Notes under the pieces: generated by a model | What the model was told of the DNA's origin: nothing | Seen by the model: the letters and a program-made list of their open reading frames with translations, nothing else | Databases searched by the model: none | In this document: piece after piece, positions 3,677 to 21,316 of the stretch | Layout of the letters: every line of letters begins with the position of its first letter | Position numbering within the stretch: the first letter of the stretch is position 1 | Program-made: the position numbers and the translations under genes | Virus record (IMG/VR): IMGVR_UViG_3300044976_000003 | Coordinates: 1-38,394 of that record | Source: a virus | Lineage: Duplodnaviria > Caudoviricetes | DNA: 38,394 nt | Direction: 5' to 3' (one strand)

Positions 3677-3702
3677 CATTATAGCATATGTTGCGAACGC
3701 GT
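3677..3702 (-). promoter_or_regulatory. Phage promoter motif copy (variant ACGC-N15-TATAATG)
   Basis: Plus strand cattata-N15-gcgt, upstream of the VRR-NUC/exonuclease/RNAP genes. Confidence 0.6.
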
Positions 3703-3717
3703 GCGGGTATATAAAAA

Positions 3718-4209
3718 TTATCGATCCCTCAAATGAATGTCATGTGGGAATAACGTATAGTGAATGCTGTTTTTACATCGAACAATATGCATCTCCAATG
3801 CCACGTACAGGATGGCCAGTTCACAATATGTAGAGAAGGTCTCATCAGTCTCAATACTGGTAATACTCCATGGCCGTCTGCATCCTTCTGCGCAACGTTG
3901 ACGTTCTATGTGGTACTTGTAAGCAAACCAGTTTGGTCTCCACTCTAAATTAGTAACATGACAATTAGTTCGGTCTCCATCAATCTGAACAGGGGTATCA
4001 AAAGCTTCAAACCTATGCGGCTTCAAGAATTGTTGTGCAACTAGTTTTGGAACAGATCGTCTATATTGAACACCCTTGCACATCATACCAACTGTTGGTA
4101 TACCTCGTTGGTTGTAAGAACGAGTTAGCAATTTTCCATGCCGGTTAATGACATCTCCAGCCTCATTTATCTGGTAATCAGGAAACTCAGGAATAGGTCG
4201 AAAAAGCAT
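3718..4209 (-). CDS. NUMOD4/HNH-family protein, possibly degenerate
   Basis: IPEFPDYQINEAGDV (NUMOD4-like) and VQIDGDRTNCHVTNLEW (HNH-like). ATG at 4209 with GGAGG RBS. Confidence 0.75.
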   Translation of the reverse strand: MLFRPIPEFPDYQINEAGDVINRHGKLLTRSYNQRGIPTVGMMCKGVQYRRSVPKLVAQQFLKPHRFEAFDTPVQIDGDRTNCHVTNLEWRPNWFAYKYHIERQRCAEGCRRPWSITSIETDETFSTYCELAILYVALEMHIVRCKNSIHYTLFPHDIHLRDR

Positions 4210-4273
4210 TTGTAAAACCTCCTTTTTAACAGTCGTCAAAACGCCACTTTTATGTCGAAGTTAATGCTAGTTA

Positions 4274-4321
4274 TTTTGTAGAAGGTATATAGATTTCTAT
4301 AATTATATACCTTCTACAAAA
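4274..4321. repeat. 18-bp perfect inverted repeat in an AT-rich intergenic region (candidate origin element)
   Basis: TTTTGTAGAAGGTATATA - 12 nt - TATATACCTTCTACAAAA. Confidence 0.9.
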
Positions 4322-4412
4322 ATACCGAACTTAATATAAATAATAAAAGTCGTACATAATGACGGATTGGACCTTTTTTACTCAAGATGGTATATAAAAG
4401 GGCCTTTTTTGG

Positions 4413-5564
4413 TCAAAAAATGTCCGAAATGTCCGATTTGTACCATTTGATTTCATTGAAATTCTGCTTTTGCCGTACGGCAAAAATGACGGCGTCGTCG
4501 TTTTTTTTGACGGAAATTAGCAAATAGTAGAAAAGTTTTTTCCATTTTGTGTCTAAACGATCAATTCTTCCTTTTGCTTGAGCGAAATTTTTGTAAGAAT
4601 ATGTCATGCTGTAAAAAACGACGACATTTGTAGAGGTACAATTCCAACCTTCTGACCCTGCTGCGTACTGTACAAGATAGACCCAACGGTCTGTATTAGG
4701 GATCTCCTCATGCTTATGACCGTTCCATTCTGCCAAAGGAACCTCATCCTTCAACTCTCTAAGAATCTCCAATTCATAGTCAAAGTTGTAGAAAACAATC
4801 AACCTGGGATGGGTATCCATCAAAGCTCGAACTGTCGCTAAACGAGACCGGTCAGAATACAGAACTTTACGAAGCACATAGAACATCTCGGTTATGTCTC
4901 GTAAAGGCCTGTTCTTATATACGTGCCATCGGTCCTTCGCTACAAGGTTATACAGATTCTCGTCATGGCCAACTCTTATGATTATCTCCTCGCTAGTGGT
5001 GTGCATCTGGAAAGGCATTTCCACAAGCAATTCTCTACGAAGCTTATTCAATTTACCTTCATTGAGGTACCTTTCAATCTTAGGGAATTTAGACCAAGAG
5101 CTGAATACTACGTGTTCTCTAAGAAACTCGGTCCTATTCCGGTAGTATCCATTTGCAATAAATACAGGGATATAATCCATCCAAGTATCGCCAGGAGTAG
5201 CCGAGAGTAATATCCAGCGATTGTGCTTTGCGATCTTGAGAAAAGACTTAACCCAAGCGCCACGACCCGCAAGACGTTGTTCATCCATAACAAAGAATGC
5301 ATCTTCAACCCCCTCGTACTTACCTATGTTGTTCCACGAGTCAACCCACATCCCTAAATCTATCCCGAAACCCTTAGCTTCATTCTCCCAATCTTTACTG
5401 TCTCTCTTCTTTGCAGTAGTGATTACATACAAAGGCTTGTCGTATTCGTTCTTACGATAATAACCCAAGGCCGTCTTAGTCTTACCAGTCCCCACTCCTC
5501 CCCACAAGATCTTGCCATTGCTAAGATCCTCGATAGCCTTCTTCTGATGTTCGTACAATTCCAT
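4413..5564 (-). CDS. SF2 (SNF2-like) DNA helicase
   Basis: LYEHQ Q-motif, GVGTGKT Walker A, MDEQ, LSATP and QAKGRIDR motif VI. Confidence 0.9.
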
Positions 5565-5575
5565 ATACCCTCCAG

Positions 5576-5612
5576 AAAACCATAAGCCCGTGTTAGGGGC
5601 TTAGAGGGTTTT
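5576..5612 (-). terminator. Repeated hairpin family A (AAGCCCC-TAACAC-GGGCTT..GGTTTT)
   Basis: Same sequence at 5886 and 20593, variants elsewhere; lies just after a stop codon. Confidence 0.65.
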
Positions 5613-5617
5613 GATTA

Positions 5618-5836
5618 CTAGTGCAGGAATGTGGTTCGGCCAACATATTTATCTAACAAATAACCATTCTCCTTATACATAGAGTCTTTACTTGGCAGAA
5701 TCTCGTTTTGACTTGAGTCTCCTGGGCACCATATTGCTATGGTTTCCACAAAGGCATTGGCAAAATTATGACCAAATACTTTCTCAAGTAGTGGATAATG
5801 GAAAGATTTGTTCGGTATTACATATAGCTCATACAT
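5618..5836 (-). CDS. Hypothetical protein (cassette gene)
   Basis: 72-aa ORF with AAAGGA RBS, between the promoter at 5860 and the hairpin at 5576. Confidence 0.75.
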   Translation of the reverse strand: MYELYVIPNKSFHYPLLEKVFGHNFANAFVETIAIWCPGDSSQNEILPSKDSMYKENGYLLDKYVGRTTFLH

Positions 5837-5859
5837 ACATCGTCCTTTCTAGTAGGTTC

Positions 5860-5885
5860 CATTATAGCAAAAGATTAGTATGCGA
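5860..5885 (-). promoter_or_regulatory. Phage promoter motif TCGC-N15-TATAATG
   Basis: Plus strand cattata gcaaaagattagtat gcga. Confidence 0.75.
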
Positions 5886-5920
5886 AAACCATAAGCCCGT
5901 GTTAGGGGCTTAGAGGGTTT
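5886..5920 (-). terminator. Hairpin family A abutting a promoter
   Basis: aaaccataagcccgtgttaggggcttagagggttt. Confidence 0.65.
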
Positions 5921-5926
5921 AGTGAG

Positions 5927-6100
5927 TCAGTCGGACTTCTCTAGAATTTTGTTACCAATCTTCACAGTTGCATAGAATATCAAACCGTAAGTTCCTCCAA
6001 TAACCGCAGCCTTCTTTAGTTGGTATTTAGTCTCGTTGGGGAGTGCTATCCGGTATGTATTCGAAAGTGCACTGTTGTTCTTGTAAATTACAAATTCCAT
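5927..6100 (-). CDS. Small membrane protein (cassette gene)
   Basis: Start re-set to MEFVIYK, downstream of the promoter and GAAAGGA RBS; hydrophobic AAVIGGTYGLIFYATV. Confidence 0.7.
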   Translation of the reverse strand: MEFVIYKNNSALSNTYRIALPNETKYQLKKAAVIGGTYGLIFYATVKIGNKILEKSD

Positions 6101-6114
6101 TTCTTTCCTTTCCT

Positions 6115-6140
6115 CATTATACAAGATGATCTTCACGCGA
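6115..6140 (-). promoter_or_regulatory. Phage promoter motif TCGC-N15-TATAATG
   Basis: cattata caagatgatcttcac gcga. Confidence 0.75.
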
Positions 6141-6167
6141 AAGCCCTAGCACATGGCTAGGGTGTTT
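6141..6167 (-). terminator. Hairpin family B (CCCTAGC-CATGT-GCTAGGG)
   Basis: Identical 19-mer at 18574-18592. Confidence 0.6.
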
Positions 6168-6168
6168 G

Positions 6169-6387
6169 TCAATCAGTTAATTCCACAAGACCTTTCTCAT
6201 AGTATTGAATGAAGGTTAGAGTAGGGATGGCAACAGTCTGAAACTCAACTTCTTCAATAAATTGCGCGAGTCCATCTTCGTAGAATGCGATATAATTCGC
6301 CTCTTTCGGGATTTCTTCGAAATTCATCAAAGCCAATAAGTGTCTAGACTGTTGGTCTACCTTAATTATACACTTCACAGCATCCAT
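6169..6387 (-). CDS. Hypothetical protein (cassette gene)
   Basis: 72 aa with AAGGAGG RBS, flanked by promoter and hairpin. Confidence 0.75.
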   Translation of the reverse strand: MDAVKCIIKVDQQSRHLLALMNFEEIPKEANYIAFYEDGLAQFIEEVEFQTVAIPTLTFIQYYEKGLVELTD

Positions 6388-6411
6388 AGATCCTCCTTAG
6401 GGTTAACTTCT

Positions 6412-6437
6412 CATTATACCCAGTGATTTCCATGCGA
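6412..6437 (-). promoter_or_regulatory. Phage promoter motif TCGC-N15-TATAATG
   Basis: cattata cccagtgatttccat gcga. Confidence 0.75.
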
Positions 6438-6463
6438 GAACCTATACCACATGGGTATAGGCC
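6438..6463 (-). terminator. Hairpin family C (CCTATACC-CATGT-GGTATAGG)
   Basis: Identical 21-mer at 6681; variant at 19814. Confidence 0.6.
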
Positions 6464-6470
6464 GCAATCT

Positions 6471-6626
6471 CTACTTGGCGTGGGTGGCTTTGTATGAATA
6501 ACCGACTTGGTAAGATCCATCGTCAGGTGAGTGGTGGAAACAGTATGGCTCATCGTCATAGGCAACGATGTTAATACAATCTTCAAAGTCACAGGGATGC
6601 ATTTCGTCCATGTCGTAACTAGACAT
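6471..6626 (-). CDS. 51-aa acidic Cys/His protein (not in the ORF track)
   Basis: MSSYDMDEMHPCDFEDCINIVAYDDEPYCFHHSPDDGSYQVGYSYKATHAK; AAGGAG RBS; fills the cassette between the promoter at 6652 and the hairpin at 6438. Confidence 0.75.
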   Translation of the reverse strand: MSSYDMDEMHPCDFEDCINIVAYDDEPYCFHHSPDDGSYQVGYSYKATHAK

Positions 6627-6651
6627 AATTTCTCCTTCGTTAGTAGTATTC

Positions 6652-6677
6652 CATTATACGAGATGATAAACACGCGA
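6652..6677 (-). promoter_or_regulatory. Phage promoter motif TCGC-N15-TATAATG
   Basis: cattata cgagatgataaacac gcga. Confidence 0.75.
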
Positions 6678-6702
6678 AAACCTATACCACATGGGTATAG
6701 GC
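6678..6702 (-). terminator. Hairpin family C
   Basis: aaacctataccacatgggtatagg. Confidence 0.6.
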
Positions 6703-6714
6703 CTTAAGGGTTAA

Positions 6715-6918
6715 TCAACGGTAAGTATAGAAATCCACTTCATACAATGTCAGAAGGTCCTTGTAGCAGTTCCTGATTTTGGTGTTCTCTTTCGCCATGG
6801 CGTCATGAACCTTGTACATCTTAATAGCGTACTCAATTCGCGTTCCGGGCGTATCGGGAAGACCAGCATCAAGCAACTCTTTTACAAGAGCTTCTTCCAT
6901 CATCTTAGTGATATCCAT
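6715..6918 (-). CDS. Hypothetical protein (cassette gene)
   Basis: Start re-set to MDITK after the GAAAGGA RBS. Confidence 0.7.
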   Translation of the reverse strand: MDITKMMEEALVKELLDAGLPDTPGTRIEYAIKMYKVHDAMAKENTKIRNCYKDLLTLYEVDFYTYR

Positions 6919-6942
6919 TTCATTCCTTTCTTGGTTTGTCCT

Positions 6943-6968
6943 CATTATACGAAATGATCTTCACGCGA
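6943..6968 (-). promoter_or_regulatory. Phage promoter motif TCGC-N15-TATAATG
   Basis: cattata cgaaatgatcttcac gcga. Confidence 0.75.
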
Positions 6969-6984
6969 AAAAAAATAGACCGCG

Positions 6985-7014
6985 AAAAGGGAGGGGCCGG
7001 TTAAGACCCCTCCC
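6985..7014 (-). terminator. Intrinsic terminator
   Basis: GGGAGGGG..CCCCTCCC stem followed by TTTT on the minus strand, after the 7022 stop. Confidence 0.7.
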
Positions 7015-7021
7015 AGATCAC

Positions 7022-7381
7022 CTAAATAATAGGATACACTTCGCCTGGAATTCCAGCTTTACGAGCCTTCTCGATAAAATCGTTAGTTCCTGTGCTGTCG
7101 CTTCGTGGAAAGGCAATCCAGAATTCAACATCAGAAGCTAACATAGCCGCATTCCGTTGTGGTCCTGCCGAACGCCCGTACTTCTGCCATAGAGCTTCAT
7201 ACCGCTCGACGCTAATGTCGTTCTCATCAGCCCACTCATCAGCAAGAGCATCGACACCAGTAGCACCACCATGGAGAATCGTATCGATTTCGTACTTATC
7301 ATGCAAGAAATCAAATACCGTCCAGATATACCGGATGTCCTTCTCGCTTGTCCTACGAGTCCCTGAAACTGCTACTCTCAT
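7022..7381 (-). CDS. SLOG-superfamily protein (DUF2493/YspA-like)
   Basis: RVAVSGTR, ILHGGATGVD, AGPQRN..ML and IAFP...GT motifs. Confidence 0.8.
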   Translation of the reverse strand: MRVAVSGTRRTSEKDIRYIWTVFDFLHDKYEIDTILHGGATGVDALADEWADENDISVERYEALWQKYGRSAGPQRNAAMLASDVEFWIAFPRSDSTGTNDFIEKARKAGIPGEVYPII

Positions 7382-7722
7382 AGTTTGGTCCTTAGGTACT
7401 TGAGCGTATCCGAGAACCCGTTGAGAATATCTACAATCGAGATCTCAACAGATTCTACAGGATCGAAAGTATTTTCGAACGAAGGAGCAGTATACACCTT
7501 GAACCCACTATCCGAAGAGAGGACCCAATCCCCAACATTAGCGATCGTCTGCTTCGGCGAGAGCGGCCGCTTGACATTCACCTTGATCTTAGGGCCATCG
7601 GTTGTTTGAATGATATTGCCATCGCACCACGTGGCTACATCATACATATTCTTAGCTGTAACCCGAACTGCGTCAACCGTAAACGGCTTTCTTAGATAGA
7701 CCCGTACGTCCAGTTCATTCAT
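7378..7722 (-). CDS. Conserved phage protein (RKP..V.AV...VGDWV...FE.TF type)
   Basis: Motif pattern common in small phage proteins; start/stop overlaps with neighbours. Confidence 0.7.
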   Translation of the reverse strand: MNELDVRVYLRKPFTVDAVRVTAKNMYDVATWCDGNIIQTTDGPKIKVNVKRPLSPKQTIANVGDWVLSSDSGFKVYTAPSFENTFDPVESVEISIVDILNGFSDTLKYLRTKL

Positions 7723-9882: not shown

Positions 9883-9900
9883 TATTTCCCCTCCATATAT

Positions 9901-9937
9901 GAAAACCATAAGCCCCTGGTTGGGGCTTAGAGGGTTT
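9901..9937 (-). terminator. Hairpin family A variant
   Basis: gaaaaccataagcccctggttggggcttagagggttt. Confidence 0.6.
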
Positions 9938-9945
9938 ATGAGTTC

Positions 9946-10077: not shown

Positions 10078-10213
10078 TTCGTTCCTTTCGTAGGGTCCTC
10101 ATTATAGGAGATGTATCAGTCGCGAACATAGGATCTGAAGTTCCATGCCATGGGCATGGCTCCGGATATGAGATCTTCCCTGCATCGCAACATTCCACCT
10201 TTTGCGCCTCCAT
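10070..10213 (-). CDS. Possible small Cys/His protein
   Basis: MEAQKVECCDAGKISYPEPCPWHG; weak RBS, and the 3' half overlaps a promoter. Confidence 0.35.
   Translation of the reverse strand: MEAQKVECCDAGKISYPEPCPWHGTSDPMFATDTSPIMRTLRKERND
10100..10125 (-). promoter_or_regulatory. Phage promoter motif TCGC-N15-TATAATG
   Basis: cattata ggagatgtatcagtc gcga. Confidence 0.75.
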
Positions 10214-10220
10214 CTGTTTT

Positions 10221-13943: not shown

Positions 13944-13951
13944 GCTCCTCC

Positions 13952-14494: not shown

Positions 14495-15195
14495 TCCTCT
14501 AGATCAGGACGGAACTTCAGGACCTCCCGCCGATTAGAATGTCGGCGCCTCCTCTTTCGCGAATGCTCAATATAACCGAGCACTTCTTCGACATAGCTGC
14601 CGCCCATTCGTCTGATCTCGTAGTCAGCTTCCAACTCGTGATTTCGAATATATACAATCTCCAAGTCTTTAGAACCATCTCCGAAACGTTGCAGATTGGT
14701 TATCCCAACAACAAGATCGATCTCTTGCACTACCTCTTCGTTTTCGTTTAGAAGAACATCTTCCTCCTCGTAATATGTGTATGTGATCTTGTCGTATTCT
14801 GGGAACTCGTTCTCAAATTCCAATGTGCTGATAACAAATGGAATCTCTTCGTTACGTGATGCGAGTTCTTCCTCTTCGTTCCAATTCAACTCATCTGGCG
14901 TCTCGTCAATCGGCCCTAGTGTCTCAGGCATGATTATACCATTCTCGTCGTAATGCTCAAGGAGATTCTCGTTCATCTCCTTCTCGACCTTGATCTTGGT
15001 TGCTACCCACCGATTGTAATGATTCGCTTTCTCAATCTCTTCTGCGAGATTAGCGTTGTAATGCTTCTCATACTTCTTTGCCACCTGCTTCTTCGTAACA
15101 ATATACGAGAGCATACCTCCAGCAATAAATGAACTAGCAGAGGCAGCAATGACAAACGCGACATCATTATCAATAAGAGCTCTAAATCTTGTCAT
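14491..15195 (-). CDS. Acidic protein with an N-terminal transmembrane helix
   Basis: Hydrophobic N-terminal segment, Glu-rich body and an Arg-rich patch near the C-terminus. Confidence 0.8.
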   Translation of the reverse strand: MTRFRALIDNDVAFVIAASASSFIAGGMLSYIVTKKQVAKKYEKHYNANLAEEIEKANHYNRWVATKIKVEKEMNENLLEHYDENGIIMPETLGPIDETPDELNWNEEEELASRNEEIPFVISTLEFENEFPEYDKITYTYYEEEDVLLNENEEVVQEIDLVVGITNLQRFGDGSKDLEIVYIRNHELEADYEIRRMGGSYVEEVLGYIEHSRKRRRRHSNRREVLKFRPDLEE

Positions 15196-16084
15196 AAATC
15201 ACTCCATCCACATTGAAGTCAAGCCAAATACCGCCCTCATGGCCTGTCATGAAATCTCGAATACGATTGCTATTGCCTAGAAATACTCCGAAATCGACGT
15301 AATTATCACCCGAAGCATCCATCACCCAACCGACAACCGCCCCAGCTCGAGACCTAGCCATCCCGAGCATGTCATAGACCTCGTTCAGGAAAATATGTCC
15401 ACGAGTATGAAGCAAATCATTAGCGTGATTCTGTTGGGCCTTCAAGAATATGGAGTTGTATTGCGAATCCGATGACCACGAGGTGTGGCTACGATCGAAG
15501 AACCGAGCATAGATCGAATATGGCCCTGGATTTGCTCTGAGTTCTGTCGCCTCTTCCGAACCAAGTGCAGTAATCTTAGAGAACGTATGCTCTTTGGAGC
15601 CATAGCGCATCTGCGAATCAGCTTCTTCGCCATACGCGTCAATGACATTCCGTCGATACGCCTTGAACCCTTGGTCGAGAGCAGAATATGCCGCGGTCAG
15701 GGCAAGATTACGCTTAACAAGGATACGATGCGAGCCTGTCAACGCCGCGATTGTCAGAATACCAATACCAACGGCGGGAGCATAAAGCTTCGTCAGGCTG
15801 ACTGCCGTCCTTGTGTAAACGATCAGAACGTCTTTCTTGTAGTCCTGCTCTGTGTATTGCTCGATCTCGAGCGACCTGACAGTTTTTGCCTTGTTGAGAT
15901 CGGCCTGGGCCTCATCCAGCACAGCCTCAACCTTCAGAGTTGCATGGCTAGCGACAACTGCGGTCGCGACAACACCAACAACCCCGGCAGCAAACAGGAT
16001 AGTAGGAGAATGCTTAGACGCATGAAGGAGCGCCCGTCCTGTTCTGGCCGTAACGGCGTTTGGAATATACTTGACTAGTGACAT
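15182..16084 (-). CDS. Membrane protein (DUF6353-like), paralog of 18796-19551
   Basis: SPTIL.AAGVVG, LYAPAV, L.AAYSAL..F..Y, FLNEVYDMLG..GW. Confidence 0.75.
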   Translation of the reverse strand: MSLVKYIPNAVTARTGRALLHASKHSPTILFAAGVVGVVATAVVASHATLKVEAVLDEAQADLNKAKTVRSLEIEQYTEQDYKKDVLIVYTRTAVSLTKLYAPAVGIGILTIAALTGSHRILVKRNLALTAAYSALDQGFKAYRRNVIDAYGEEADSQMRYGSKEHTFSKITALGSEEATELRANPGPYSIYARFFDRSHTSWSSDSQYNSIFLKAQQNHANDLLHTRGHIFLNEVYDMLGMARSRAGAVVGWVMDASGDNYVDFGVFLGNSNRIRDFMTGHEGGIWLDFNVDGVIYDKI

Positions 16085-16112
16085 TTATGGTCCAATCGTA
16101 CGTAGTTTTAGA

Positions 16113-16143
16113 GAAAGAAAGAGCCCTTGTTAGGGGCTCTCTC
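16113..16143 (-). terminator. Hairpin with a TAACA loop and pyrimidine tail
   Basis: AGAGCCCCTAACAAGGGCTCTTTCTTTC on the minus strand. Confidence 0.65.
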
Positions 16144-16154
16144 AAGTAGTAGGG

Positions 16155-16301
16155 TCAGTCTTCATCCATGTAGTTCACGAGCCATGGGGCAACATACTTT
16201 CTACCGATCTTCATCCCGAGAACGATCGCTCCAATATAGAACGCTCCTCCCACGATTGAGCCAGCAGTAAAGAAGTATTCGTCACGTCTTGTGATTTTCA
16301 T
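16155..16301 (-). CDS. 48-aa membrane peptide (cassette gene)
   Basis: Start re-set to MKITRR after the promoter and AAAGGA RBS; one transmembrane segment. Confidence 0.7.
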   Translation of the reverse strand: MKITRRDEYFFTAGSIVGGAFYIGAIVLGMKIGRKYVAPWLVNYMDED

Positions 16302-16318
16302 GAAATTTCCTTTCTCCT

Positions 16319-16344
16319 CATTATAGGCCGTGTAGAATATGCGA
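16319..16344 (-). promoter_or_regulatory. Phage promoter motif TCGC-N15-TATAATG
   Basis: cattata ggccgtgtagaatat gcga. Confidence 0.75.
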
Positions 16345-16345
16345 C

Positions 16346-16987
16346 TTAGTTCAATGGCTCTGGTCGTGGCAGATCTAGCAAATATCCATTTCGGACTCGT
16401 GTAACCCCTGCGCCTCGAATATCCGTCCAACCCCACTTCCCGTCCGTATAACTCTCAGTAATACCAACCAGCTCGTACAAGTCAGCAACCGTAGCCGATT
16501 CATATTTGCTTACGAGTTCGAAGAGACGATCGATCACACCCTCTGCATCACTCCGATTTGGCAGGATTATCTCGTCGAAATCGTGAGTCGCCCTAGCTTT
16601 GCGATTCGGGCCTCTGGATGGTTCGCGTCGATCATCCCAAGGTGGGGTCTGCCTTGAATATTGGTTGTACGAGACATAGCCTGACCCGCCATTGCGCCGA
16701 TGGTAAGGACGTCGCGAAGTTGAGCGGGTCTCGCCAAACAGCATCCTCTCGACACCCTGGGACATCATATCAGCGAGAGTATCCTTAGCCGCAGGGATGA
16801 ATACATCATACAGAATATAACTACCAACACTCCTGGAGTCTCCTCCGATGAAAATCTCTGAGAATTTCTTACTAAGTGGCTTCTTTCGTCTGATAACCTC
16901 GCCTTCAATAACTTTCTCGACCTTCTTAGCTGGTTCGGTCGCTGGCTCTTCTTTGGCATGATCACTGTTCGGTGGGTAATCTTCCAT
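16346..16987 (-). CDS. Conserved phage protein sharing the V.DLYELVG..GW domain with the DUF6353-like genes
   Basis: 213 aa; ATVADLYELVG..KWGWTD. Confidence 0.8.
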   Translation of the reverse strand: MEDYPPNSDHAKEEPATEPAKKVEKVIEGEVIRRKKPLSKKFSEIFIGGDSRSVGSYILYDVFIPAAKDTLADMMSQGVERMLFGETRSTSRRPYHRRNGGSGYVSYNQYSRQTPPWDDRREPSRGPNRKARATHDFDEIILPNRSDAEGVIDRLFELVSKYESATVADLYELVGITESYTDGKWGWTDIRGAGVTRVRNGYLLDLPRPEPLN

Positions 16988-17004
16988 ATTTTATCCTTCG
17001 AAAG

Positions 17005-17039
17005 AAAACCACAAGGATCTGTTAAGATCCCTGTGGGGC
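17005..17039 (-). terminator. Hairpin family D (CCACAGGGATC-TTAACA-GATCCTTGTGGTTTT)
   Basis: Near-identical copy at 18248. Confidence 0.65.
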
Positions 17040-17044
17040 TGAGG

Positions 17045-17302
17045 TTAATTTGAGTCGGTCGTATCTGGCTTGGCGTTCTTGTTCCAACTATTGACGAAGC
17101 TATCAATTGCAGAATCAGTGTAATTACCGGCCGCCTCGCTTGCCATCATTCCAGCAGCGATACTTCCACTAGTCACAAACAGGTTATCGATTTGTGATCG
17201 TGGAGCTACGTTACGGGAAACAATTTCACGAGTGATCCGGTAAACACCAATTCCAACAACGAACTTCGTTATAGTCTTGGCGAGTTTTACCTTGTCGTCC
17301 AT
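17045..17302 (-). CDS. Small protein with amphipathic/hydrophobic helices (cassette gene)
   Basis: Start re-set to MDDKVK after the GAAAGGA RBS. Confidence 0.7.
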   Translation of the reverse strand: MDDKVKLAKTITKFVVGIGVYRITREIVSRNVAPRSQIDNLFVTSGSIAAGMMASEAAGNYTDSAIDSFVNSWNKNAKPDTTDSN

Positions 17303-17325
17303 TTCGTTCCTTTCAAGTGGGTCCT

Positions 17326-17351
17326 CATTATATGAGATGTTTTTCTTGCGA
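17326..17351 (-). promoter_or_regulatory. Phage promoter motif TCGC-N15-TATAATG
   Basis: cattata tgagatgtttttctt gcga. Confidence 0.75.
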
Positions 17352-17450
17352 TGTGGGCACATTTTCTATGGCTCCGGCTGTCGTTTAAAGTTAGCCTCCG
17401 GAAAAGGAGCTGAGACCCTACGAGAGGCACCTGGCTAACTCCCATCGCAA
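17346..17450 (-). ncRNA. Putative structured RNA element of unknown class
   Basis: Nested stems TTGCGATG/CATCGCAA, AGTTAGCC/GGCTAACT and CTCC/GGAG filling the intergenic gap. Confidence 0.45.
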
Positions 17451-17455
17451 ATATA

Positions 17456-17926
17456 CTACTCAGGCTTCTGGTTAAGCATCAATAGAAGCTCTTCCCGGGT
17501 GTATGTGTTTACGTCCTTCTTAGGAATCTCGATCTGCATGGGCGTAGGCTCGCCTTCCTCAGGAACTAACCCCTCAGGTACGATTCCATTCACAAATATA
17601 GCGGCAGCACCAGCATCTGTAGCGAGCTCCATGAAAAGTGTAGAATATGCCTCTGTCTGCTCGAATTCGTCCCGAAGCTCTTGTGACTTGATGAACCGAC
17701 GGCCGTCTTCCGACTTCACCCCATAGGCTTGGAGGATTATCTTCTTAAAGGTTTGGATGATCTGAGCGCCATCGTTCGAAGCCACGATTCGCTTAAGGGC
17801 CTCGGCAAGTCCGCCTTTCTCAGAGACCTCCAACTCGATCAATTCGGCCTTGGTAAGGTGGAAATAATAGTCCTCAGTGACTGTCTTGTCGTTGTAATTC
17901 TTGTATGTGATTGATTTCTTGAGCAT
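17456..17926 (-). CDS. Conserved phage hypothetical protein
   Basis: Start MLKKSITY with AGGAG RBS; YFHLTKAEL..AYG.KSEDGRRFIK. Confidence 0.8.
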   Translation of the reverse strand: MLKKSITYKNYNDKTVTEDYYFHLTKAELIELEVSEKGGLAEALKRIVASNDGAQIIQTFKKIILQAYGVKSEDGRRFIKSQELRDEFEQTEAYSTLFMELATDAGAAAIFVNGIVPEGLVPEEGEPTPMQIEIPKKDVNTYTREELLLMLNQKPE

Positions 17927-18231
17927 TAGCTCTCCTCTTGAACGATTGCCATTAGAATAATCAAGTAATTGATATGGTCGGTTATCTTCTCGTCCCATAT
18001 TACTTCTGGTATTGGGTCTCCCGAATTACACAAGTCATAAACGGAAATGGTGTGCTTAGCCATCATTCCAGCAAGAGCTTGCTTCATCGTAATACCTTGC
18101 AGATTGGCCGCAACTCGGAAATTATGAAGACGGTCGTGAGTCGTAGCATAAGCCGCGCCTTTCCCCATAAGAACATCACGGCAAACCGTGATCTGCGTTT
18201 CAACAATCTCATCGAACTTCTTGGCGTCCAT
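17926..18231 (-). CDS. All-alpha nucleotide-associated protein (DUF1599/Nmad1 or dNTP-diphosphohydrolase-like)
   Basis: KGAAYA..DRLHNF..EKITDHINYLIIL; start MDAKK with GAGGAG RBS. Confidence 0.55.
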   Translation of the reverse strand: MDAKKFDEIVETQITVCRDVLMGKGAAYATTHDRLHNFRVAANLQGITMKQALAGMMAKHTISVYDLCNSGDPIPEVIWDEKITDHINYLIILMAIVQEES

Positions 18232-18247
18232 ATTCTCCTCAGAAAAG

Positions 18248-18283
18248 AAAACCACAAGGATCTGTTACGATCCCTGTGGGTTG
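18248..18283 (-). terminator. Hairpin family D
   Basis: aaaaccacaaggatctgttacgatccctgtggg. Confidence 0.65.
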
Positions 18284-18301
18284 GGGTTACTCTATTGTTA
18301 G

Positions 18302-18514
18302 TCAGTCAACTAGGGTCGACACGACATCAGTGAACTCGTCGGCTCCGAAGGCGACCTCGGGCTTGCCCTTCTTTCCAATTGCGTAGGCCACCGCAAGACC
18401 AGCAACGCTGGCAGCAGTAACCGCAGCAACCTTCTTAAGGTTAAAGCGCTTAGTCTTCTTCGGCTCTTCGACGGGGGTCGTCTGAGCAGTCGTCTCAACA
18501 GTCGGGTTGGACAT
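18302..18514 (-). CDS. Small membrane protein (cassette gene)
   Basis: 70 aa with an Ala/Val transmembrane segment flanked by Lys; AAGGAG RBS. Confidence 0.75.
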   Translation of the reverse strand: MSNPTVETTAQTTPVEEPKKTKRFNLKKVAAVTAASVAGLAVAYAIGKKGKPEVAFGADEFTDVVSTLVD

Positions 18515-18539
18515 GATTTCTCCTTTTGAGTAGGGTCCT

Positions 18540-18565
18540 CATTATAGGCCATGTAATTTTTGCGA
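18540..18565 (-). promoter_or_regulatory. Phage promoter motif TCGC-N15-TATAATG
   Basis: cattata ggccatgtaattttt gcga. Confidence 0.75.
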
Positions 18566-18569
18566 AGAG

Positions 18570-18593
18570 AAAACCCTAGCACATGGCTAGGGG
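18570..18593 (-). terminator. Hairpin family B
   Basis: aaaaccctagcacatggctaggg. Confidence 0.6.
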
Positions 18594-18604
18594 ACTAGAT
18601 TTAC

Positions 18605-18730
18605 TTACTTGGACTTCTTACCTTTAACTTTCTGAGTGGCCGTGAACGTGCCTTGAATTGTATCGGATTTTGGGTCAATCTCCTCAAATATAAGCACGAA
18701 CGTCAGTTCCATCTTCTGGCCTTTAGGCAT
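18605..18730 (-). CDS. 41-aa peptide with a basic tail (not in the ORF track)
   Basis: MPKGQKMELTFVLIFEEIDPKSDTIQGTFTATQKVKGKKSK; GAAAGGA RBS; fills a cassette. Confidence 0.7.
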   Translation of the reverse strand: MPKGQKMELTFVLIFEEIDPKSDTIQGTFTATQKVKGKKSK

Positions 18731-18751
18731 GAGAATTCCTTTCTAGTATCT

Positions 18752-18777
18752 CATTATAGGCCAAGTATTCTATGCGA
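18752..18777 (-). promoter_or_regulatory. Phage promoter motif TCGC-N15-TATAATG
   Basis: cattata ggccaagtattctat gcga. Confidence 0.75.
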
Positions 18778-18795
18778 GACAGTCCCCAGAACCGC

Positions 18796-19551
18796 CTAAT
18801 AGTACCCCCTGATGGGAAAGGTAGAATACTCTATGGATATACAAGGTCGGTTGTCCTCAGACATACAAGCCGTGAATTTCAGCTCAAGGAGATCGTCTGA
18901 ATTCCAGCCTACTTCGCTAGAATATGCCGTAGGTTTAAGGCCGATCATCTCGTAGAATTCATGCAAAGAAGCATACGTATTGTTGATTATCATGTGGTTT
19001 AGATCATTTTGAGCCTTGCGCAAAGACTCCATATCAGACTCGAAATATCGTCCTGACATCGAATCGAAGCAAAGTACAGTGCCCGTACCAGTAACGAGTA
19101 CTTCTTTTGTGGATACTGGATTCTTTCGCACCCTATCCGAGGCGATTTCATCCCGAATCTCGATTGCCTTCTTCTCCCCAAGACGCTCGACAATCTTGTC
19201 TTTGTACTCCGAGAAGGCTCGCTCAGAAAGGGTGTAGGCAGTGGCAATAGCGGCTGCCCTGCGGGTGCCGATACGGTTCGCAGCGATGATACAGACGATG
19301 GTCATAACACCAGTACCAACTGCTGGAATATATAGCTGCCATACAAGTTCTACCTTATCCTTAGGCGTTAGGTCTATAGGCTCAACAATATCATTCTCAA
19401 GTTGACTAATAATATCAGAAGCTTTGAATGATGCCTTAGCTGTAAGGACGGCCGTAGTCACCGTACCGGTAACGCCAACAGCAGTTAGAATAAGCGGGGA
19501 ATTATCTCCTACAAGTTTTACGGCTTTGTGGAATAATCCGTTTAGATTCAT
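18796..19551 (-). CDS. Membrane protein (DUF6353-like)
   Basis: SPLILTAVGVTG, LYIPAV, ATAYTL..F..Y, SLHEFYEMIGL..VGW; start re-set to MNLNG. Confidence 0.75.
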   Translation of the reverse strand: MNLNGLFHKAVKLVGDNSPLILTAVGVTGTVTTAVLTAKASFKASDIISQLENDIVEPIDLTPKDKVELVWQLYIPAVGTGVMTIVCIIAANRIGTRRAAAIATAYTLSERAFSEYKDKIVERLGEKKAIEIRDEIASDRVRKNPVSTKEVLVTGTGTVLCFDSMSGRYFESDMESLRKAQNDLNHMIINNTYASLHEFYEMIGLKPTAYSSEVGWNSDDLLELKFTACMSEDNRPCISIEYSTFPIRGYY

Positions 19552-19569
19552 ATAGGTCCTTTGCCATAG

Positions 19570-19640
19570 AAAAGAAAAATAAGAAGGTCGGCCGTTACTT
19601 GCTGGGGGGCAAGTGTCGCCAGAGCTTGCGCTCTCCTTCT
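19570..19640 (-). ncRNA. Putative small structured RNA 1 (GNRA hairpin plus C-rich-loop hairpin)
   Basis: Own promoter; stems AGAAGG/CCTTCT, AGAGC-GCAA-GCTCT and ACTTGC-CCCCCA-GCAAGT; U-rich tail; no ORF. Confidence 0.55.
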
Positions 19641-19666
19641 CATTATAGGCCATGTAATTCCTGCGA
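19641..19666 (-). promoter_or_regulatory. Phage promoter motif TCGC-N15-TATAATG
   Basis: Identical to the 19780 copy over about 30 bp. Confidence 0.75.
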
Positions 19667-19670
19667 AGTG

Positions 19671-19779
19671 AAAAAGAAAATACCGCGTCTTAGCATCGTT
19701 TACTGGCCTGCATCTATTCCAAGATACATATCTGTTGCTACTGTTTACTGGGATGTTCCGTTCCCAAACAGTATCTTCT
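19671..19779 (-). ncRNA. Putative small structured RNA 2
   Basis: Own promoter; TACTGTTT-GGGA..TCCC-AGT-AAACAGTA stem; CCAGTAAAC present twice; U-rich tail; no RBS-led ORF. Confidence 0.5.
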
Positions 19780-19805
19780 CATTATAGGCCATGTAATTCC
19801 TGCGA
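19780..19805 (-). promoter_or_regulatory. Phage promoter motif TCGC-N15-TATAATG
   Basis: cattata ggccatgtaattcct gcga. Confidence 0.75.
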
Positions 19806-19809
19806 ATTC

Positions 19810-19834
19810 AAAACCTATACCCGAAGGTATAGGC
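19810..19834 (-). terminator. Hairpin family C variant with a UUCG tetraloop
   Basis: CCTATACCTTCGGGTATAGGTTTT on the minus strand. Confidence 0.7.
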
Positions 19835-19841
19835 CCGAGAA

Positions 19842-20078
19842 TCAATCATTACGACGATAAGATTCATTGATCATAATATGCGAAACAGTTCTGAATCCGA
19901 AATATGCTCCGATAACACATACAACGCCCTTGACTATATTTTTGCCTTGCTCACTGATAATTTCGTTAATTGTTTCAATGACTGGGGTCCCAATAAGCTC
20001 AGGTGGTTCGTATGGGTTTCCGGAGATTTCCTTCTTCGGTACCATCTCAACATACATTGCTCTATTCTTAAACATCAC
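19842..20078 (-). CDS. Small protein with a C-terminal transmembrane helix (cassette gene)
   Basis: GAAAGGA RBS, flanked by promoter and hairpin. Confidence 0.7.
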   Translation of the reverse strand: MMFKNRAMYVEMVPKKEISGNPYEPPELIGTPVIETINEIISEQGKNIVKGVVCVIGAYFGFRTVSHIMINESYRRND

Positions 20079-20092
20079 AATCCTTTCGTTCT

Positions 20093-20118
20093 CACTATAT
20101 GCGATGCTACGTTTGCGA
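20093..20118 (-). promoter_or_regulatory. Phage promoter motif variant TCGC-N15-TATAGTG
   Basis: cactata tgcgatgctacgttt gcga; family A-like hairpin abuts at 20119-20149. Confidence 0.65.
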
Positions 20119-20150
20119 AAACCATAAGCCCTTGTGGGGCTGTAGGTTTA

Positions 20151-20345
20151 TTAGAAAGATGCTTGAAGTAGTTCTTTAGCTTGGTACCTTTCATTGATTT
20201 CTTCTGATATGTTCAACATGTGCTGTTCAAAACTACGCATTTCTGCCTCATGGAATTCTGCTTGTGTCAGAACCAGTATGGTTAGTGCAATAGCTGCGAG
20301 CACGATGTACTTACAGATTGTATTCAAAGTATCCAAAAAGTTCAT
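20151..20345 (-). CDS. Small membrane protein (cassette gene)
   Basis: N-terminal transmembrane helix; GAAAGGA RBS. Confidence 0.75.
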   Translation of the reverse strand: MNFLDTLNTICKYIVLAAIALTILVLTQAEFHEAEMRSFEQHMLNISEEINERYQAKELLQASF

Positions 20346-20368
20346 TTTTTATCCTTTCGTTTATCTTC

Positions 20369-20394
20369 CATTAAAGGATATGATTTCTACGCGA
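20369..20394 (-). promoter_or_regulatory. Phage promoter motif variant TCGC-N15-TTTAATG
   Basis: cattaaa ggatatgatttctac gcga; family A-like hairpin abuts at 20395-20424. Confidence 0.65.
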
Positions 20395-20442
20395 AAACCA
20401 TAAGCCCTTGCGGGGATATGGCTTTGAGTTTCGGGGTCAATC

Positions 20443-20550
20443 TTAAAAATAGCTAAATTTTGCGATCACCAATACTGCAACTAAATTTAGTAGTACAATA
20501 GCAACGCAGATAATAAGAATCGCTTTAATTAGAGCCGTTAAAAATTTCAT
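20443..20550 (-). CDS. 35-aa hydrophobic peptide (not in the ORF track)
   Basis: MKFLTALIKAILIICVAIVLLNLVAVLVIAKFSYF; AAAGGA RBS; fills a cassette. Confidence 0.7.
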   Translation of the reverse strand: MKFLTALIKAILIICVAIVLLNLVAVLVIAKFSYF

Positions 20551-20566
20551 TGAAATCCTTTCTCCT

Positions 20567-20592
20567 CATTATAGGAGAAGTTTACTTTGCGA
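20567..20592 (-). promoter_or_regulatory. Phage promoter motif TCGC-N15-TATAATG
   Basis: cattata ggagaagtttacttt gcga. Confidence 0.75.
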
Positions 20593-20624
20593 AAACCATA
20601 AGCCCGTGTTAGGGGCTTAGAGGG
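20593..20624 (-). terminator. Hairpin family A
   Basis: aaaccataagcccgtgttaggggcttagaggg, identical to the copies at 5577 and 5886. Confidence 0.65.
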
Positions 20625-20632
20625 TCCGTGAG

Positions 20633-20815
20633 TTACTCGATTTCGGTGTAATACTCGTCGAACAGGCCTTTCTGCTTCAAGAATTCATTATGTTCCTTAA
20701 TTCCGCCTCGCTGGAGCACGGCAACTGTTGATACAACAGCTAGCGTGCCAAGCAAGATTCCGACCTTATGGTCATCAATAAATTCGATTACAGGGTTTGG
20801 CTTCCTTCGCTTCAT
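20633..20815 (-). CDS. Small membrane protein (cassette gene)
   Basis: Start re-set to MKRRKP; one transmembrane segment; N.FLK.KGL.DEYY tail. Confidence 0.75.
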   Translation of the reverse strand: MKRRKPNPVIEFIDDHKVGILLGTLAVVSTVAVLQRGGIKEHNEFLKQKGLFDEYYTEIE

Positions 20816-20839
20816 TTCACTTTCCTTTCGTAGGGTCCT

Positions 20840-20865
20840 CATTATATGATATGTAAGTTACGCGA
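20840..20865 (-). promoter_or_regulatory. Phage promoter motif TCGC-N15-TATAATG
   Basis: cattata tgatatgtaagttac gcga. Confidence 0.75.
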
Positions 20866-20910
20866 AAAACACTTTGTGGAAAAAATCCCCCCGGAGAAAT
20901 TTTTGGATTG

Positions 20911-20958
20911 AAAAAAAATAGAGGGTGTGCAAAGTGGTTAGCTCTACACACCCCCTAT
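20911..20958 (-). terminator. Strong intrinsic terminator closing the structural/late block
   Basis: ATAGGGGGTGTGTAGAG..CTTTGCACACCCTCTAT followed by a T8 tract. Confidence 0.8.
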
Positions 20959-20982
20959 ACGGGTTACCCAGATAGGGATTTT

Positions 20983-21267
20983 TTATCGAAATTTCACCAA
21001 TAACGGTAAGGCTTTTGACGTCATGACGTGTCCTCGTTCGTATGCGACTATTATGAAGATACTTACAAGATTACCAATGATGATAGCTTTAGTGTCCTTG
21101 CTCAATCGATCTGTTTTATCAATTTCTTTCAGAGCGTAGAGCTTCGACAATTGCTTGACCATCTTTGAATATTCTTTAGTATCCGCAGTGAATCCTTGCA
21201 TCTCATTCAGAACTTCGTCAATCGCGTTCTCAAGCCCAGTTGGTTCGATTGGCTGTTTCTTAAACAT
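20983..21267 (-). CDS. Conserved small protein with a C-terminal transmembrane helix
   Basis: Start re-set to MFKKQ after the GAAAGGA RBS. Confidence 0.75.
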   Translation of the reverse strand: MFKKQPIEPTGLENAIDEVLNEMQGFTADTKEYSKMVKQLSKLYALKEIDKTDRLSKDTKAIIIGNLVSIFIIVAYERGHVMTSKALPLLVKFR

Positions 21268-21288
21268 AATTTCCTTTCGTAGGGCCCC

Positions 21289-21314
21289 CATTATAGGATA
21301 AGAATACTTCGCGG
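21289..21314 (-). promoter_or_regulatory. Phage promoter motif variant CCGC-N15-TATAATG
   Basis: cattata ggataagaatacttc gcgg. Confidence 0.65.
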
Positions 21315-21316
21315 CC

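Follow-up and report, generated by a model that had tools for sequence, protein, structure and literature searches.

The window, that is, the whole stretch of 38,394 nucleotides of phage DNA analysed here, is by its sequence a fragment of the 1706/Oengus/AM-AU-AW-BI-CC-DJ-EL phage group, throughout which the motif described below occurs. It encodes a large RNA polymerase homologue, two nuclease genes preceding it, and a series of small genes and predicted small RNAs each following a copy of the motif:

123..2825, minus: 900-aa single-chain two-barrel RNA polymerase homologue (PHROG 4291; 1706 orf75 family)
129..236, minus: polymerase C-terminal HTH, aa 864-899 (Pfam Sigma70_r4_2 / HTH_23)
1281..1295, minus: polymerase DFDGD metal-binding loop, aa 511-515
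2241..2690, minus: polymerase two HTHs and winged helix, aa 46-195
2754..2801, minus: polymerase N-terminal HxG tag, aa 9-24, candidate capsid-loading signal
2822..3644, minus: Cas4-like exonuclease and VRR-Nuc-type endonuclease genes
3677..3702, minus: motif copy, ACGC variant, before the VRR-Nuc / Cas4-like nuclease / RNA polymerase operon
5860..5885, minus: motif copy, between a terminator-like hairpin and a 72-aa ORF
6115..6140, minus: motif copy, before a 57-aa ORF with its start codon at nt 16 past the hexamer
6412..6437, minus: motif copy, before a 72-aa ORF
6652..6677, minus: motif copy, before a 51-aa ORF
6943..6968, minus: motif copy, before a 67-aa ORF
10100..10125, minus: motif copy, follows the primase-polymerase gene; next come a 43-aa ORF and the ssDNA-binding-protein operon
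16319..16344, minus: motif copy, at the end of a 213-aa gene, before a 48-aa ORF
17326..17351, minus: motif copy, before an 85-aa ORF
18540..18565, minus: motif copy, before a 70-aa ORF
18752..18777, minus: motif copy, before a 41-aa ORF
19581..19641, minus: predicted 61-nt small RNA, 7-bp closing stem from the first base past the hexamer, then a U run
19641..19666, minus: motif copy, before a small structured RNA
19674..19780, minus: predicted 107-nt small RNA, 13-bp closing stem from the first base past the hexamer
19780..19805, minus: motif copy, before a small structured RNA
20093..20118, minus: motif copy, TATAGT variant, before a 77-aa ORF
20369..20394, minus: motif copy, TTTAAT variant lacking the sigma-70 A, before a 64-aa ORF
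20567..20592, minus: motif copy, before a 35-aa ORF
20840..20865, minus: motif copy, before a 60-aa ORF
21289..21314, minus: motif copy, CCGC variant, first after the structural block, before a 94-aa ORF
37767..38264, minus: HxG-tagged protein of 165 aa, encoded upstream of the portal gene; its best match in PHROG is a virion structural protein

The repeated element in the window

The original prediction described eighteen minus-strand copies of TCGC-N15-TATAATG with an invariable spacer. The element and its 15-nt spacer were recovered at all 18 coordinates, each time on the coding strand; TCGC-N15-TATAAT is exact in 14 of them (mean 0.12 and largest count 2 in 100 shuffles), while the other four proved to be variants (ACGC at 3677, CCGC at 21289, TATAGT at 20093 and TTTAAT at 20369), the hexamer reading TATAAT in 16 of the 18. 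Scanning the minus strand of the window with spacers of 10-14 and 16-22 nt gave no match, and the plus-strand scan with altered spacers gave a single one, at spacer 17. With a scoring matrix trained on these same 18 window sites, the copies scored 23.9-42.8 bits, and no other place in the window exceeded 3.6 bits; this matrix scan revealed no 19th copy in the window and none in the structural block (21.3-38.4 kb), which had been correctly noted as free of the motif. The mid-spacer (A/T)CAT, previously seen in most copies, is exact in 11 of 18, and its C, which had escaped notice, is invariant (18/18). The element is longer than first stated: (T)CGCR-N7-CA-N5-TATAAT-RR.

As had been proposed, an RBS and an ORF of at least 35 aa lie downstream of 16 copies and folded small RNAs downstream of those at 19780 and 19641. 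The motif precedes small genes, small RNAs, replication genes and the polymerase operon, the copy at 16319..16344 being the last one upstream of the DUF6353 / primase-polymerase genes. The 3677 variant indeed stands upstream of the polymerase's own operon, about 880 nt before the polymerase gene, and the same position is occupied in most relatives; the Cas4-like and VRR-Nuc-type genes would presumably be co-transcribed with the polymerase from this copy. The late block is one tight operon in which neither a motif copy nor a promoter was found. The remark that TCGC does not resemble TTGACA was borne out by a TTGACA-16/18-TATAAT consensus scan, which recovered 0 of the 18 copies and found 31 places in the window against 34.6 expected.

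The polymerase and the distribution of the element

The polymerase homologue matches PHROG 4291 at 1287 bits, and its DFDGD is invariant across 128 aligned homologues. The structure model (pLDDT 78.9) matches QDE-1 (E 3.8e-8) as well as P74-26 gp62 and P23-45 gp64/gp96 (for gp62 and gp64, E ~1e-6 and TM ~0.3), so that the predicted enzyme combines a DxDGD loop and a two-barrel fold on one chain. The protein is a member of the 1706 orf75 / FP_oengus putative RNA polymerase family, for which DxDGD and terminal HTHs had been predicted earlier (PMC2919709, bioRxiv 10.1101/842583). The prediction of the family dates from 2010, and in 2021 it was called a signature of the phage group; the word 'promoter' has 0 occurrences in the main text of bioRxiv 10.1101/842583, and our literature search found no promoter, timing or activity for the 1706 orf75-type family. 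For the motif, too, the search turned up no start-site, binding or activity data, and no RNA run was listed.

The motif is present in phages of Streptomyces, Arthrobacter, Gordonia, Rhodococcus, Microbacterium, Curtobacterium and Faecalibacterium, with 8 exact copies in the DJ phage Burley, and occurs with a changed upstream box in the Lactococcus phages of the group. Judged from these genomes, it tracks the phage lineage and not the host, spanning actinobacterial and Firmicutes members. Co-occurrence of motif and polymerase, suggested at the outset as a check, was found: among IMG/VR contigs of at least 50 kb chosen by the motif alone (n=45), 42 encode the full two-barrel polymerase, and of the three that do not, two end before the gene's position and the third, a giant-virus bin, has the motif at chance level. 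When polymerase loci were taken as the starting point, their upstream side (508 kb) held 99 coding-strand matches vs 1 on the opposite strand and their late side (296 kb) 1 vs 3, and at 21 of 77 loci no upstream copy passed the threshold. In 439 kb from five unrelated phages of Rhodococcus and Microbacterium there was just 1 match; in five bacterial bins, 31 of 38 matches fell on the polymerase-bearing contig. A repeated, conserved and oriented motif is hence confined to polymerase-encoding genomes at the resolution of the lineage, the compared genomes being related and not independent, and co-occurrence as read here links the motif to the lineage, not to the polymerase gene in particular.

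Within the polymerase, the HTH2 recognition helix NESSVR (aa 104-109) is highly conserved. The only deviant helices, 3 of 90, all come from the P118-like clade, where the motif no longer contains CGC. In 1706 and CHPC971 the motif mostly reads CAC although the ESSVR helix is retained, and co-variation of HTH2 and motif therefore rests on one clade. We infer that the HTH domains of the polymerase read the motif.

The hexamer and the start of the RNA

In a sigma-70 -10 box the A at -11 and the T at -7 hardly vary. When 22 genomes were searched with a fixed pattern that ignored the first four bases of the hexamer, there were 155 coding-strand matches vs 1 on the opposite strand; the A-11 position lacks A in 42 of these copies and carries it in 113 (in Oengus in 0 of 9, in G009 in 1 of 15). 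Over 268 copies across the relatives the last T of the hexamer is kept in 259 and the A-11 equivalent in 195, and in the window alone the latter is kept in 17 of 18. Spacing is rigid as well, with 149 coding-strand matches vs 0 for each of four one-base changes in either spacer. The 18 window copies show no TTGACA-like -35 box, and the copies of the group show neither a near-invariant A-11 nor a spacer variable by 1-2 bases. TATAAT is the commonest hexamer in the polymerase-first set (55/99), and TATTAT and TATAGT stay sigma-compatible; its resemblance to a -10 box is likely misleading.

Sigma-70 promoters have their start 6-8 nt past the hexamer; here, on indirect evidence, the RNA likely starts on the purine directly past it, because the stems of small RNAs, a tRNA-like gene and some RBSs begin on the first bases there. 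The first two bases are purines in 268 of 268 copies. The two small RNAs of the window close their stems from nt 1, and removal of the first 6 nt shifted the folding z from -3.62 to -2.34 for the 61-nt RNA and from -2.93 to -0.91 for the 107-nt RNA. Among 62 ORF-less units, 8 perfect stems starting at nt 1-3 were found, whereas 200 swaps gave 1.9 on average and 6 at most; a first stem control had been weak (25/45 vs 13-22). The Oengus tRNA-like gene begins at nt 2 past the hexamer. Called RBSs across the set have a GG core at nt 5 or earlier in 20 of 190 cases; 170 are compatible with either start, and 0 of the 20 informative ones lie in the window, where every called RBS would survive a start at nt 7. 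In the original prediction the hexamer served as a -10 box, with TCGC in the role of a displaced -35 element. Since the hexamer breaks the sigma-70 rule in relatives and the RNA likely starts directly past it, the numbering is more likely CGC at -24..-22, CA at -13/-12 and the hexamer at -6..-1. T7-type promoters, with a fixed-length upstream specificity region, an A/T melting region and a purine start directly after it, have the layout predicted here; in contrast, the T7 enzyme is unrelated in fold and sequence, and the conserved bases of the window motif are discontinuous.

Candidate promoters of the phage polymerase

In our assessment the 18 copies are probably early/middle promoters read by the phage's predicted single-chain RNA polymerase. 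The original prediction had left two branches, of which this one is better supported by the comparative evidence, whereas reading by the host with a YonO-like late phage enzyme is disfavoured. Fused HTH / winged-helix modules would contact CGC (-24..-22) and the C at -13, which an A/T tract separates by one turn of the helix, melting would take place in the A/T hexamer (-6..-1), and the RNA would begin at GA, AG or GG. The genes would each form a cassette of terminator, promoter and gene. From the copy before the polymerase operon more enzyme would be made, likely throttled by a hairpin and U run directly past the start, and the late genes would be served by some other route.

The first round of transcription would likely be performed by virion-carried polymerase, loaded via the HxG tag, which also occurs in small proteins whose genes lie in the head and packaging region. 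In GenBank EU081845 the polymerase homologue 1706 orf75 is labelled 'structural protein', and so is orf7, the other HxG-type tagged ORF seen in 1706. Orf62 and orf71 lie outside the structural block without the tag, yet are labelled 'structural', and the label may therefore include contaminants. The polymerase may be carried in the virion.

No packaging would be needed if host sigma-A fired first from TATAAT-type copies, including that of the polymerase operon, with a start ~7 nt downstream, and the phage enzyme took over afterwards. This dual use solves the bootstrap problem and agrees with TATAAT being the commonest hexamer in actinobacterial members, with TATAAT or TATAGT being near-universal in low-GC Lactococcus and oral members, and with the survival of all called window RBSs under an nt-7 start. 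We nevertheless regard it as unlikely, since the polymerase-operon copy of Oengus, like that of 7 of 8 bacterial-bin loci, reads TTTTAT, while RosaAsantewaa and TieDye have TTAAAT or TTTAAT there, and the 1706 homologue bears its structural label.

T4 middle promoters, used by the host enzyme, have a MotA box near -30 in place of TTGACA together with a sigma-70 -10 box. The window motif likewise replaces TTGACA with a short box near -30, CGC falling at -30..-28 in sigma-70 numbering, and conserved genes with no assigned function (213-aa and 180-aa ORFs) could supply an activator. Host sigma-A helped in MotA/AsiA style, CGC being the activator box and TATAAT the true -10, is however quite improbable: T4 middle promoters keep the -10 box, whereas the -10 rule, above all A-11, is broken in many members of the present lineage; a sigma-type start would lie downstream of the first bases of the stems and of the tRNA-like gene; the scanned window proteins included no sigma-like or activator-like family apart from the polymerase's own HTHs; and a single activator would have to suit the enzymes of two phyla.

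Equally improbable are plain host promoters for the early genes, with the phage polymerase kept for the late operon. Precedent is provided by YonO of Bacillus phage SPbeta, a ~100-kDa single-chain two-barrel phage polymerase of the same type as that of the window and the nearest tested one, which according to the accessible text transcribes one late operon and whose promoter sequence was left open there (PMC5467207). The tight, motif-free late block would suit such a role, and the genome announcements of the Gordonia cluster DJ phages Vardy (PMC9671010) and Conley (PMC10868162, available text) describe a 50-bp and a 43-bp intergenic motif, respectively, with 5 copies in one cluster, called a sigma-70 -10 sequence. 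Matched by descriptions rather than logos, this is almost certainly the same element: repeated, intergenic, TATAAT-containing and mid-genome in phages of the same group. Unlike our reading, those papers, as far as their available text goes, draw no link to a polymerase, other clusters or a start site, and in the literature searched the motif appears only as this 'sigma-70' element in two Gordonia phages. Plain host promoters are disfavoured by the rigid spacing, by the scarcity of the motif both in DNA of the host bins and in unrelated phages infecting the same genera, and by the CTTTAT hexamer of a Firmicutes prophage, in which moreover 15 host promoters would need silencing in the lysogen. 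The window also differs from YonO and its one late operon in having many candidate promoters that avoid the late block. That the copies are operator or recombination sites of mobile gene cassettes, bracketing small variable genes along with repeated hairpins, is hardly credible given their strict coding-strand orientation without palindrome, their place between terminator and RBS, and the purine pair past the hexamer at which RNA stems start.

Reading by the phage polymerase has a close parallel in Thermus phage P23-45, whose virion gp96 and non-virion gp64 have the single-chain two-barrel fold matched by our structure model, and where, as the available text describes, a repeated phage-specific motif likewise precedes early genes and does not serve late ones (PMC10770324). 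P23-45 has two enzymes, the virion one fused to the tape measure protein, in contrast to one here, with fused HTHs and the HxG tag; the motif copies of the window also lie mid-genome and not, as in P23-45, at the end entering first.

Our widest proposal, held tentatively and with somewhat more doubt than confidence, is that a very widespread lineage spanning Actinobacteria and Firmicutes relies for its whole early/middle programme on a single RNA polymerase of 900 residues, two-barrel, head-packaged and sigma-free, which reads a tripartite promoter via fused HTHs and starts directly past a TATAAT look-alike. Given a defined 30-bp candidate promoter and its predicted start base, one cloned gene plus a reporter would suffice to test the polymerase family, and 1706 and the Arthrobacter and Gordonia phages are suitable cultured phages. 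If the promoter reading is true, a single-chain two-barrel enzyme would initiate at specific promoters with no sigma factor, the published 'sigma-70' reading would be corrected, and there would be a reason why the group tolerates hosts in two phyla. The wider proposal, if true, would amount to a self-contained, host-independent transcription unit that could explain the lineage's crossing of phyla, and to a minimal orthogonal expression system on a cellular-polymerase fold.

Architecture of the element and its cassettes

All 18 minus-strand coordinates of the original prediction, between 3677 and 21314, proved exact, and the proposed sequence TCGC-N15-TATAAT was matched exactly by 14 of the copies and with single variants by the other four, the element being longer than had been stated. 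It opens with CGC and a purine, runs through seven mostly A/T bases to an invariant C (usually CA), and five bases further on reaches the TATAAT-like hexamer, which two purines follow. A chance or artefactual origin of the copies is ruled out by shuffled sequences, from which 0.12 exact matches are expected against the 14 found, and by a window scan with a matrix trained on the 18 copies, in which the weakest copy scored 23.9 bits and the next-best place 3.6. Because this matrix finds nothing in the window beyond the 18, the predicted absence of copies from the structural block (21.3-38.4 kb) also holds.

The copies had been placed before a ribosome-binding site and an ORF or before a structured RNA; 16 of the 18 are followed by a ribosome-binding site and an ORF, and two small RNAs follow other copies, with nt 1 denoting the first base after the hexamer:

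19581-19780, minus strand: two small structured RNAs, with stems of 7 bp and 13 bp closing from nt 1

The 45 nt upstream of the copies contain a hairpin at -11 kcal/mol or better in 12 of 18 cases, a raw count that has no shuffle baseline, and the window holds 35 terminator-like sites against 15.3 expected. Throughout the motif region, terminator-promoter-gene cassettes follow one another. On the minus strand a 21-nt terminator-like hairpin occurs three times in identical form (5583-5603, 5892-5912 and 20599-20619), at distances of up to 15 kb. Close variants of it lie at 9909 and 20127, and another repeated pair at 17009 and 18252; these repeats suggest cassette shuffling by recombination. 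The early genes include a YspA/cpYpsA-related SLOG-family protein (7022-7381), and two DUF6353 paralogues, found group-wide with no assigned function, lie inside the motif-driven region (15182-16084 and 18796-19551). A perfect 18-bp inverted repeat in the A/T-rich gap between the helicase and HNH genes (4274-4321) is a candidate replication origin or operator.

Distribution across the polymerase lineage

The window record, a 38-kb linear virus with an estimated completeness of 64%, encodes at 123-2825 a 900-aa predicted polymerase. A search of 50,697 phage records gave 250 matches to it, all below 60% identity, and 249 cover at least 80% of its length. The matches come from Arthrobacter, Gordonia, Streptomyces, Lactococcus, Curtobacterium, Rhodococcus, Microbacterium and Faecalibacterium phages. 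Of 15 named relatives, 11 carry exact CGC-N15-TATAATG, always on the coding strand, and a variant-tolerant collection comprises 268 sites in 22 mutually related genomes (the Lactococcus phages 1706 and CHPC971 being near-duplicates), including Curtobacterium, Faecalibacterium and Lactococcus phages that have no exact form.

The association was examined from both directions. A search of IMG/VR with a 15-base pattern gave 138 loci from 12 of 64 parts and 49 contigs of at least 50 kb, of which 45 were analysed; 42 of these 45, chosen by the motif alone, encode the full polymerase. Two contigs (G039 and G040) were rejected as cases of a motif without polymerase, since both stop 1-3 kb past the gene for SSB or helicase and do not reach the polymerase position, and the third is a giant-virus bin with motif counts at chance level. 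Conversely, a fixed matrix applied to 88 polymerase loci gave 99 coding-strand against 1 opposite-strand matches in 508 kb upstream of the gene, and 1 against 3 in 296 kb downstream. An upstream copy was present in 56 of the 77 loci with enough upstream DNA, and in 43 of the 56 its distance to the gene was 700-1300 nt. A control of 439 kb from five unrelated Rhodococcus and Microbacterium phages yielded 1 match, and in five bacterial bins the polymerase-bearing contig holds 31 of 38 matches. Co-occurrence of this kind links the motif to the lineage; it does not have the resolution to single out the gene. Short second matches to pieces of the polymerase were also observed in TieDye (47060-47206) and two other relatives (G009, 23659-23964; G045, 19757-19954), possibly remnants or shared domains.

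In the preprint describing this phage group the protein is a predicted RNA polymerase, and the word promoter does not occur in the main text (bioRxiv 10.1101/842583); the 1706 protein is one of five YonO-like families in PMC2919709. The motif has been published for two cluster DJ phages, as a sigma-70 element (PMC9671010 and PMC10868162). No publication linking motif to polymerase was found within our coverage, outside which lie the papers on Pepy6/Poco6 (Summer 2011) and 1706 (Garneau 2008), which may mention the motif or the virion proteome; the passages retrieved by term search from PMC5513430, PMC13313380, PMC7302621, PMC5883640, PMC9226167 and PMC13432834 do not describe it.

Sigma-70 rules and the start of the RNA

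The best-kept positions over the 268 sites are the mid-spacer C (267), the last hexamer T (259) and the two purines after the hexamer (268 each). The base that sigma-70 needs most is A at the second hexamer position, which is present in only 195 of the 268. Because an iterative matrix can drift, as it did onto coding repeats in an oral-group genome (G050) once the upstream box was blanked, a result that was discarded, the key claims were re-tested with fixed patterns. A pattern blind to the first four hexamer bases gave 155 coding-strand matches against 1 on the opposite strand, and the second base was A in 113 of the 155, in 0 of 9 in Faecalibacterium phage Oengus (CTTTAT) and in 1 of 15 in G009. 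Four clostridial bins had TATAAT in 0 of 30 matches, many of which were TATTAT, a form still sigma-readable. A one-base change in either spacer left 0 coding-strand matches against 149. A displaced sigma-70 promoter is ruled out as the main reading by the unkept A under the fixed pattern and by these zero counts; judged from sequence, the motif does not obey sigma-70 rules.

The first two bases after the hexamer are GA in 187 sites, AG in 56 and GG in 25. Dropping the first six bases weakens both window RNA folds (z from -3.62 to -2.34 and from -2.93 to -0.91). A perfect stem of at least 7 bp was found in 23 of 62 units followed by no ORF, 8 of them starting at nt 1-3, where 200 swaps gave 1.9 on average and never more than 6. 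This control supersedes an earlier, looser and weak one (25 of 45 against 13-22); among ORF-followed units such a start occurs in 1 of 195. In Oengus a tRNA-like gene whose anticodon loop is irregular starts at nt 2. Of 190 called ribosome-binding sites, 20 place the GG core no later than nt 5 (one at nt 2), and the other 170 fit either start. The RNA therefore likely starts right after the hexamer; taken together, the purine pair, the stems from nt 1, the tRNA-like gene and the early cores indirectly favour a numbering with CGC at -24 to -22, C at -13, the hexamer at -6 to -1 and a purine at +1.

In the window, Rfam gave no family at gathering score and ARAGORN no tRNA, and a look-up of RNA runs for 15000-21500 listed none. 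Clamped, often tRNA-like RNAs similar to the 19581-19780 pair follow motif copies in Breylor17, Linda, the relatives G039, G005, G009, G014 and G040, and Lactococcus phages. It is possible that these RNAs are tRNA mimics or anti-defence RNAs.

The phage polymerase as probable reader

The predicted structure of the 900-aa protein (pLDDT 78.9) matches QDE-1, P74-26 gp62 and P23-45 gp64 and gp96, and its DFDGD is unchanged in 128 of 128 aligned sequences. Its DNA-binding folds are an N-terminal pair of HTHs with a winged helix and a single C-terminal HTH. For the N-terminal module, Foldseek returned nothing at E 0.001, the structural matches obtained were generic winged helices only (Z 7-8), and the PDB profile matches consisted largely of helical-repeat noise. 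We consider it probable that this real, lineage-wide, rigid promoter-like element is read by the phage's own polymerase. Of the two predicted branches, this one is preferred on the lineage-wide occurrence and the broken sigma-70 rules, and host reading with a YonO-like late enzyme is kept as a low-ranked rival. The working analogy is P23-45, in which the phage's two-barrel enzymes recognise motifs of their own ahead of early genes (PMC10770324), whereas YonO serves late genes from an undetermined promoter (PMC5467207).

Use of the copies by both host and phage enzymes is unlikely, though the best placed of the alternatives: TATAAT is still the commonest hexamer form and is kept in 16 of 18 window copies, which counts against a breach of sigma-70 rules. 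A host enzyme assisted by a phage activator is distinctly less probable; of the window proteins scanned, the polymerase alone was found to combine DNA-binding folds with conservation across the group, and atlas searches with the conserved 213-aa and 180-aa genes returned only unnamed clusters or nothing usable. Plain host promoters, against which the rigid spacing counts, are just as improbable. That the copies are non-promoter sites is hardly credible beside the RNA stems that begin at nt 1.

Recognition of CGC by the phage polymerase may involve its second N-terminal HTH, whose helix x[ED]SxxR is kept in 87 of 90 complete sequences, the exceptions being one P118-like phage and two oral phages. 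TTT replaces CGC in P118, and G050, an oral-group genome whose own helix was not inspected, has 13 TATAAT-AG copies without CGC. This co-variation is only a lead, because it concerns one clade and 1706 keeps the helix with mostly CAC at that position.

A late-promoter role of the motif is rejected: 343 kb from 18 genomes, spanning polymerase start to tape measure gene, contain no copy. All on the same strand, the late genes make up a single tight operon, and inspection of their intergenic gaps by eye showed no shared motif apart from cos-end elements; the late genes could be reached by read-through across joined ends, a second promoter class or the host enzyme. A palindrome centred on CCGGGGGG and flanked by A and T runs lies at 20880-20904 (minus strand). 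Of 9 complete actinophage records checked, 8 open at their left end with this CCGGGGGG-centred element, and in Linda, contig89, Siphovirus 29632, Poco6, G039 and G005 it is found again a short way ahead of the second motif copy; it is possibly a packaging or ejection signal. The right ends of eleven relatives (W01-W03, W05-W10, W13 and W14) carry a conserved G-run/C-run hairpin just before the cohesive end. Its loop often reads TCGCAAAA, with AC in promoter register, and CHPC971 has CAC there, as in its promoters. The hairpin may represent a half-site, or else a late promoter that fires across joined ends.

The 'structural protein' labels of 1706 reportedly came from mass spectrometry of virions. 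In GenBank EU081845 such a label is carried by orf75, the polymerase homologue, by orf7, in which the other HxG-type tag was seen, and also by two untagged ORFs of the non-structural region. The N-terminal HxG tag is common to the polymerase (2754-2801) and 1-7 small proteins of the head/packaging region (in the window, 37767-38264), and such small proteins cluster among head and packaging genes in most relatives examined. Because of the label and the shared tag, a head-packaged polymerase appears plausible.

Counterparts of the window copy at 3677, identified as the copy preceding the polymerase operon, are:

26513 in the relative G034
27684 in Oengus
57887 in G009
45097 in P118

In 7 of 16 genomes a hairpin and U run directly follow the last motif copy that precedes the polymerase; among the other copies the figure is 6 of 241. 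This arrangement, absent from the window, suggests attenuation, with the hairpin as a candidate attenuator. In 12 of 18 genomes the distance from a copy to the VRR-Nuc gene downstream is under 400 nt, and from this copy the phage polymerase would transcribe, and so drive, its own operon. The 15 copies of the variant-tolerant set in temperate Oengus would be silent in the lysogen if only the phage enzyme reads them.
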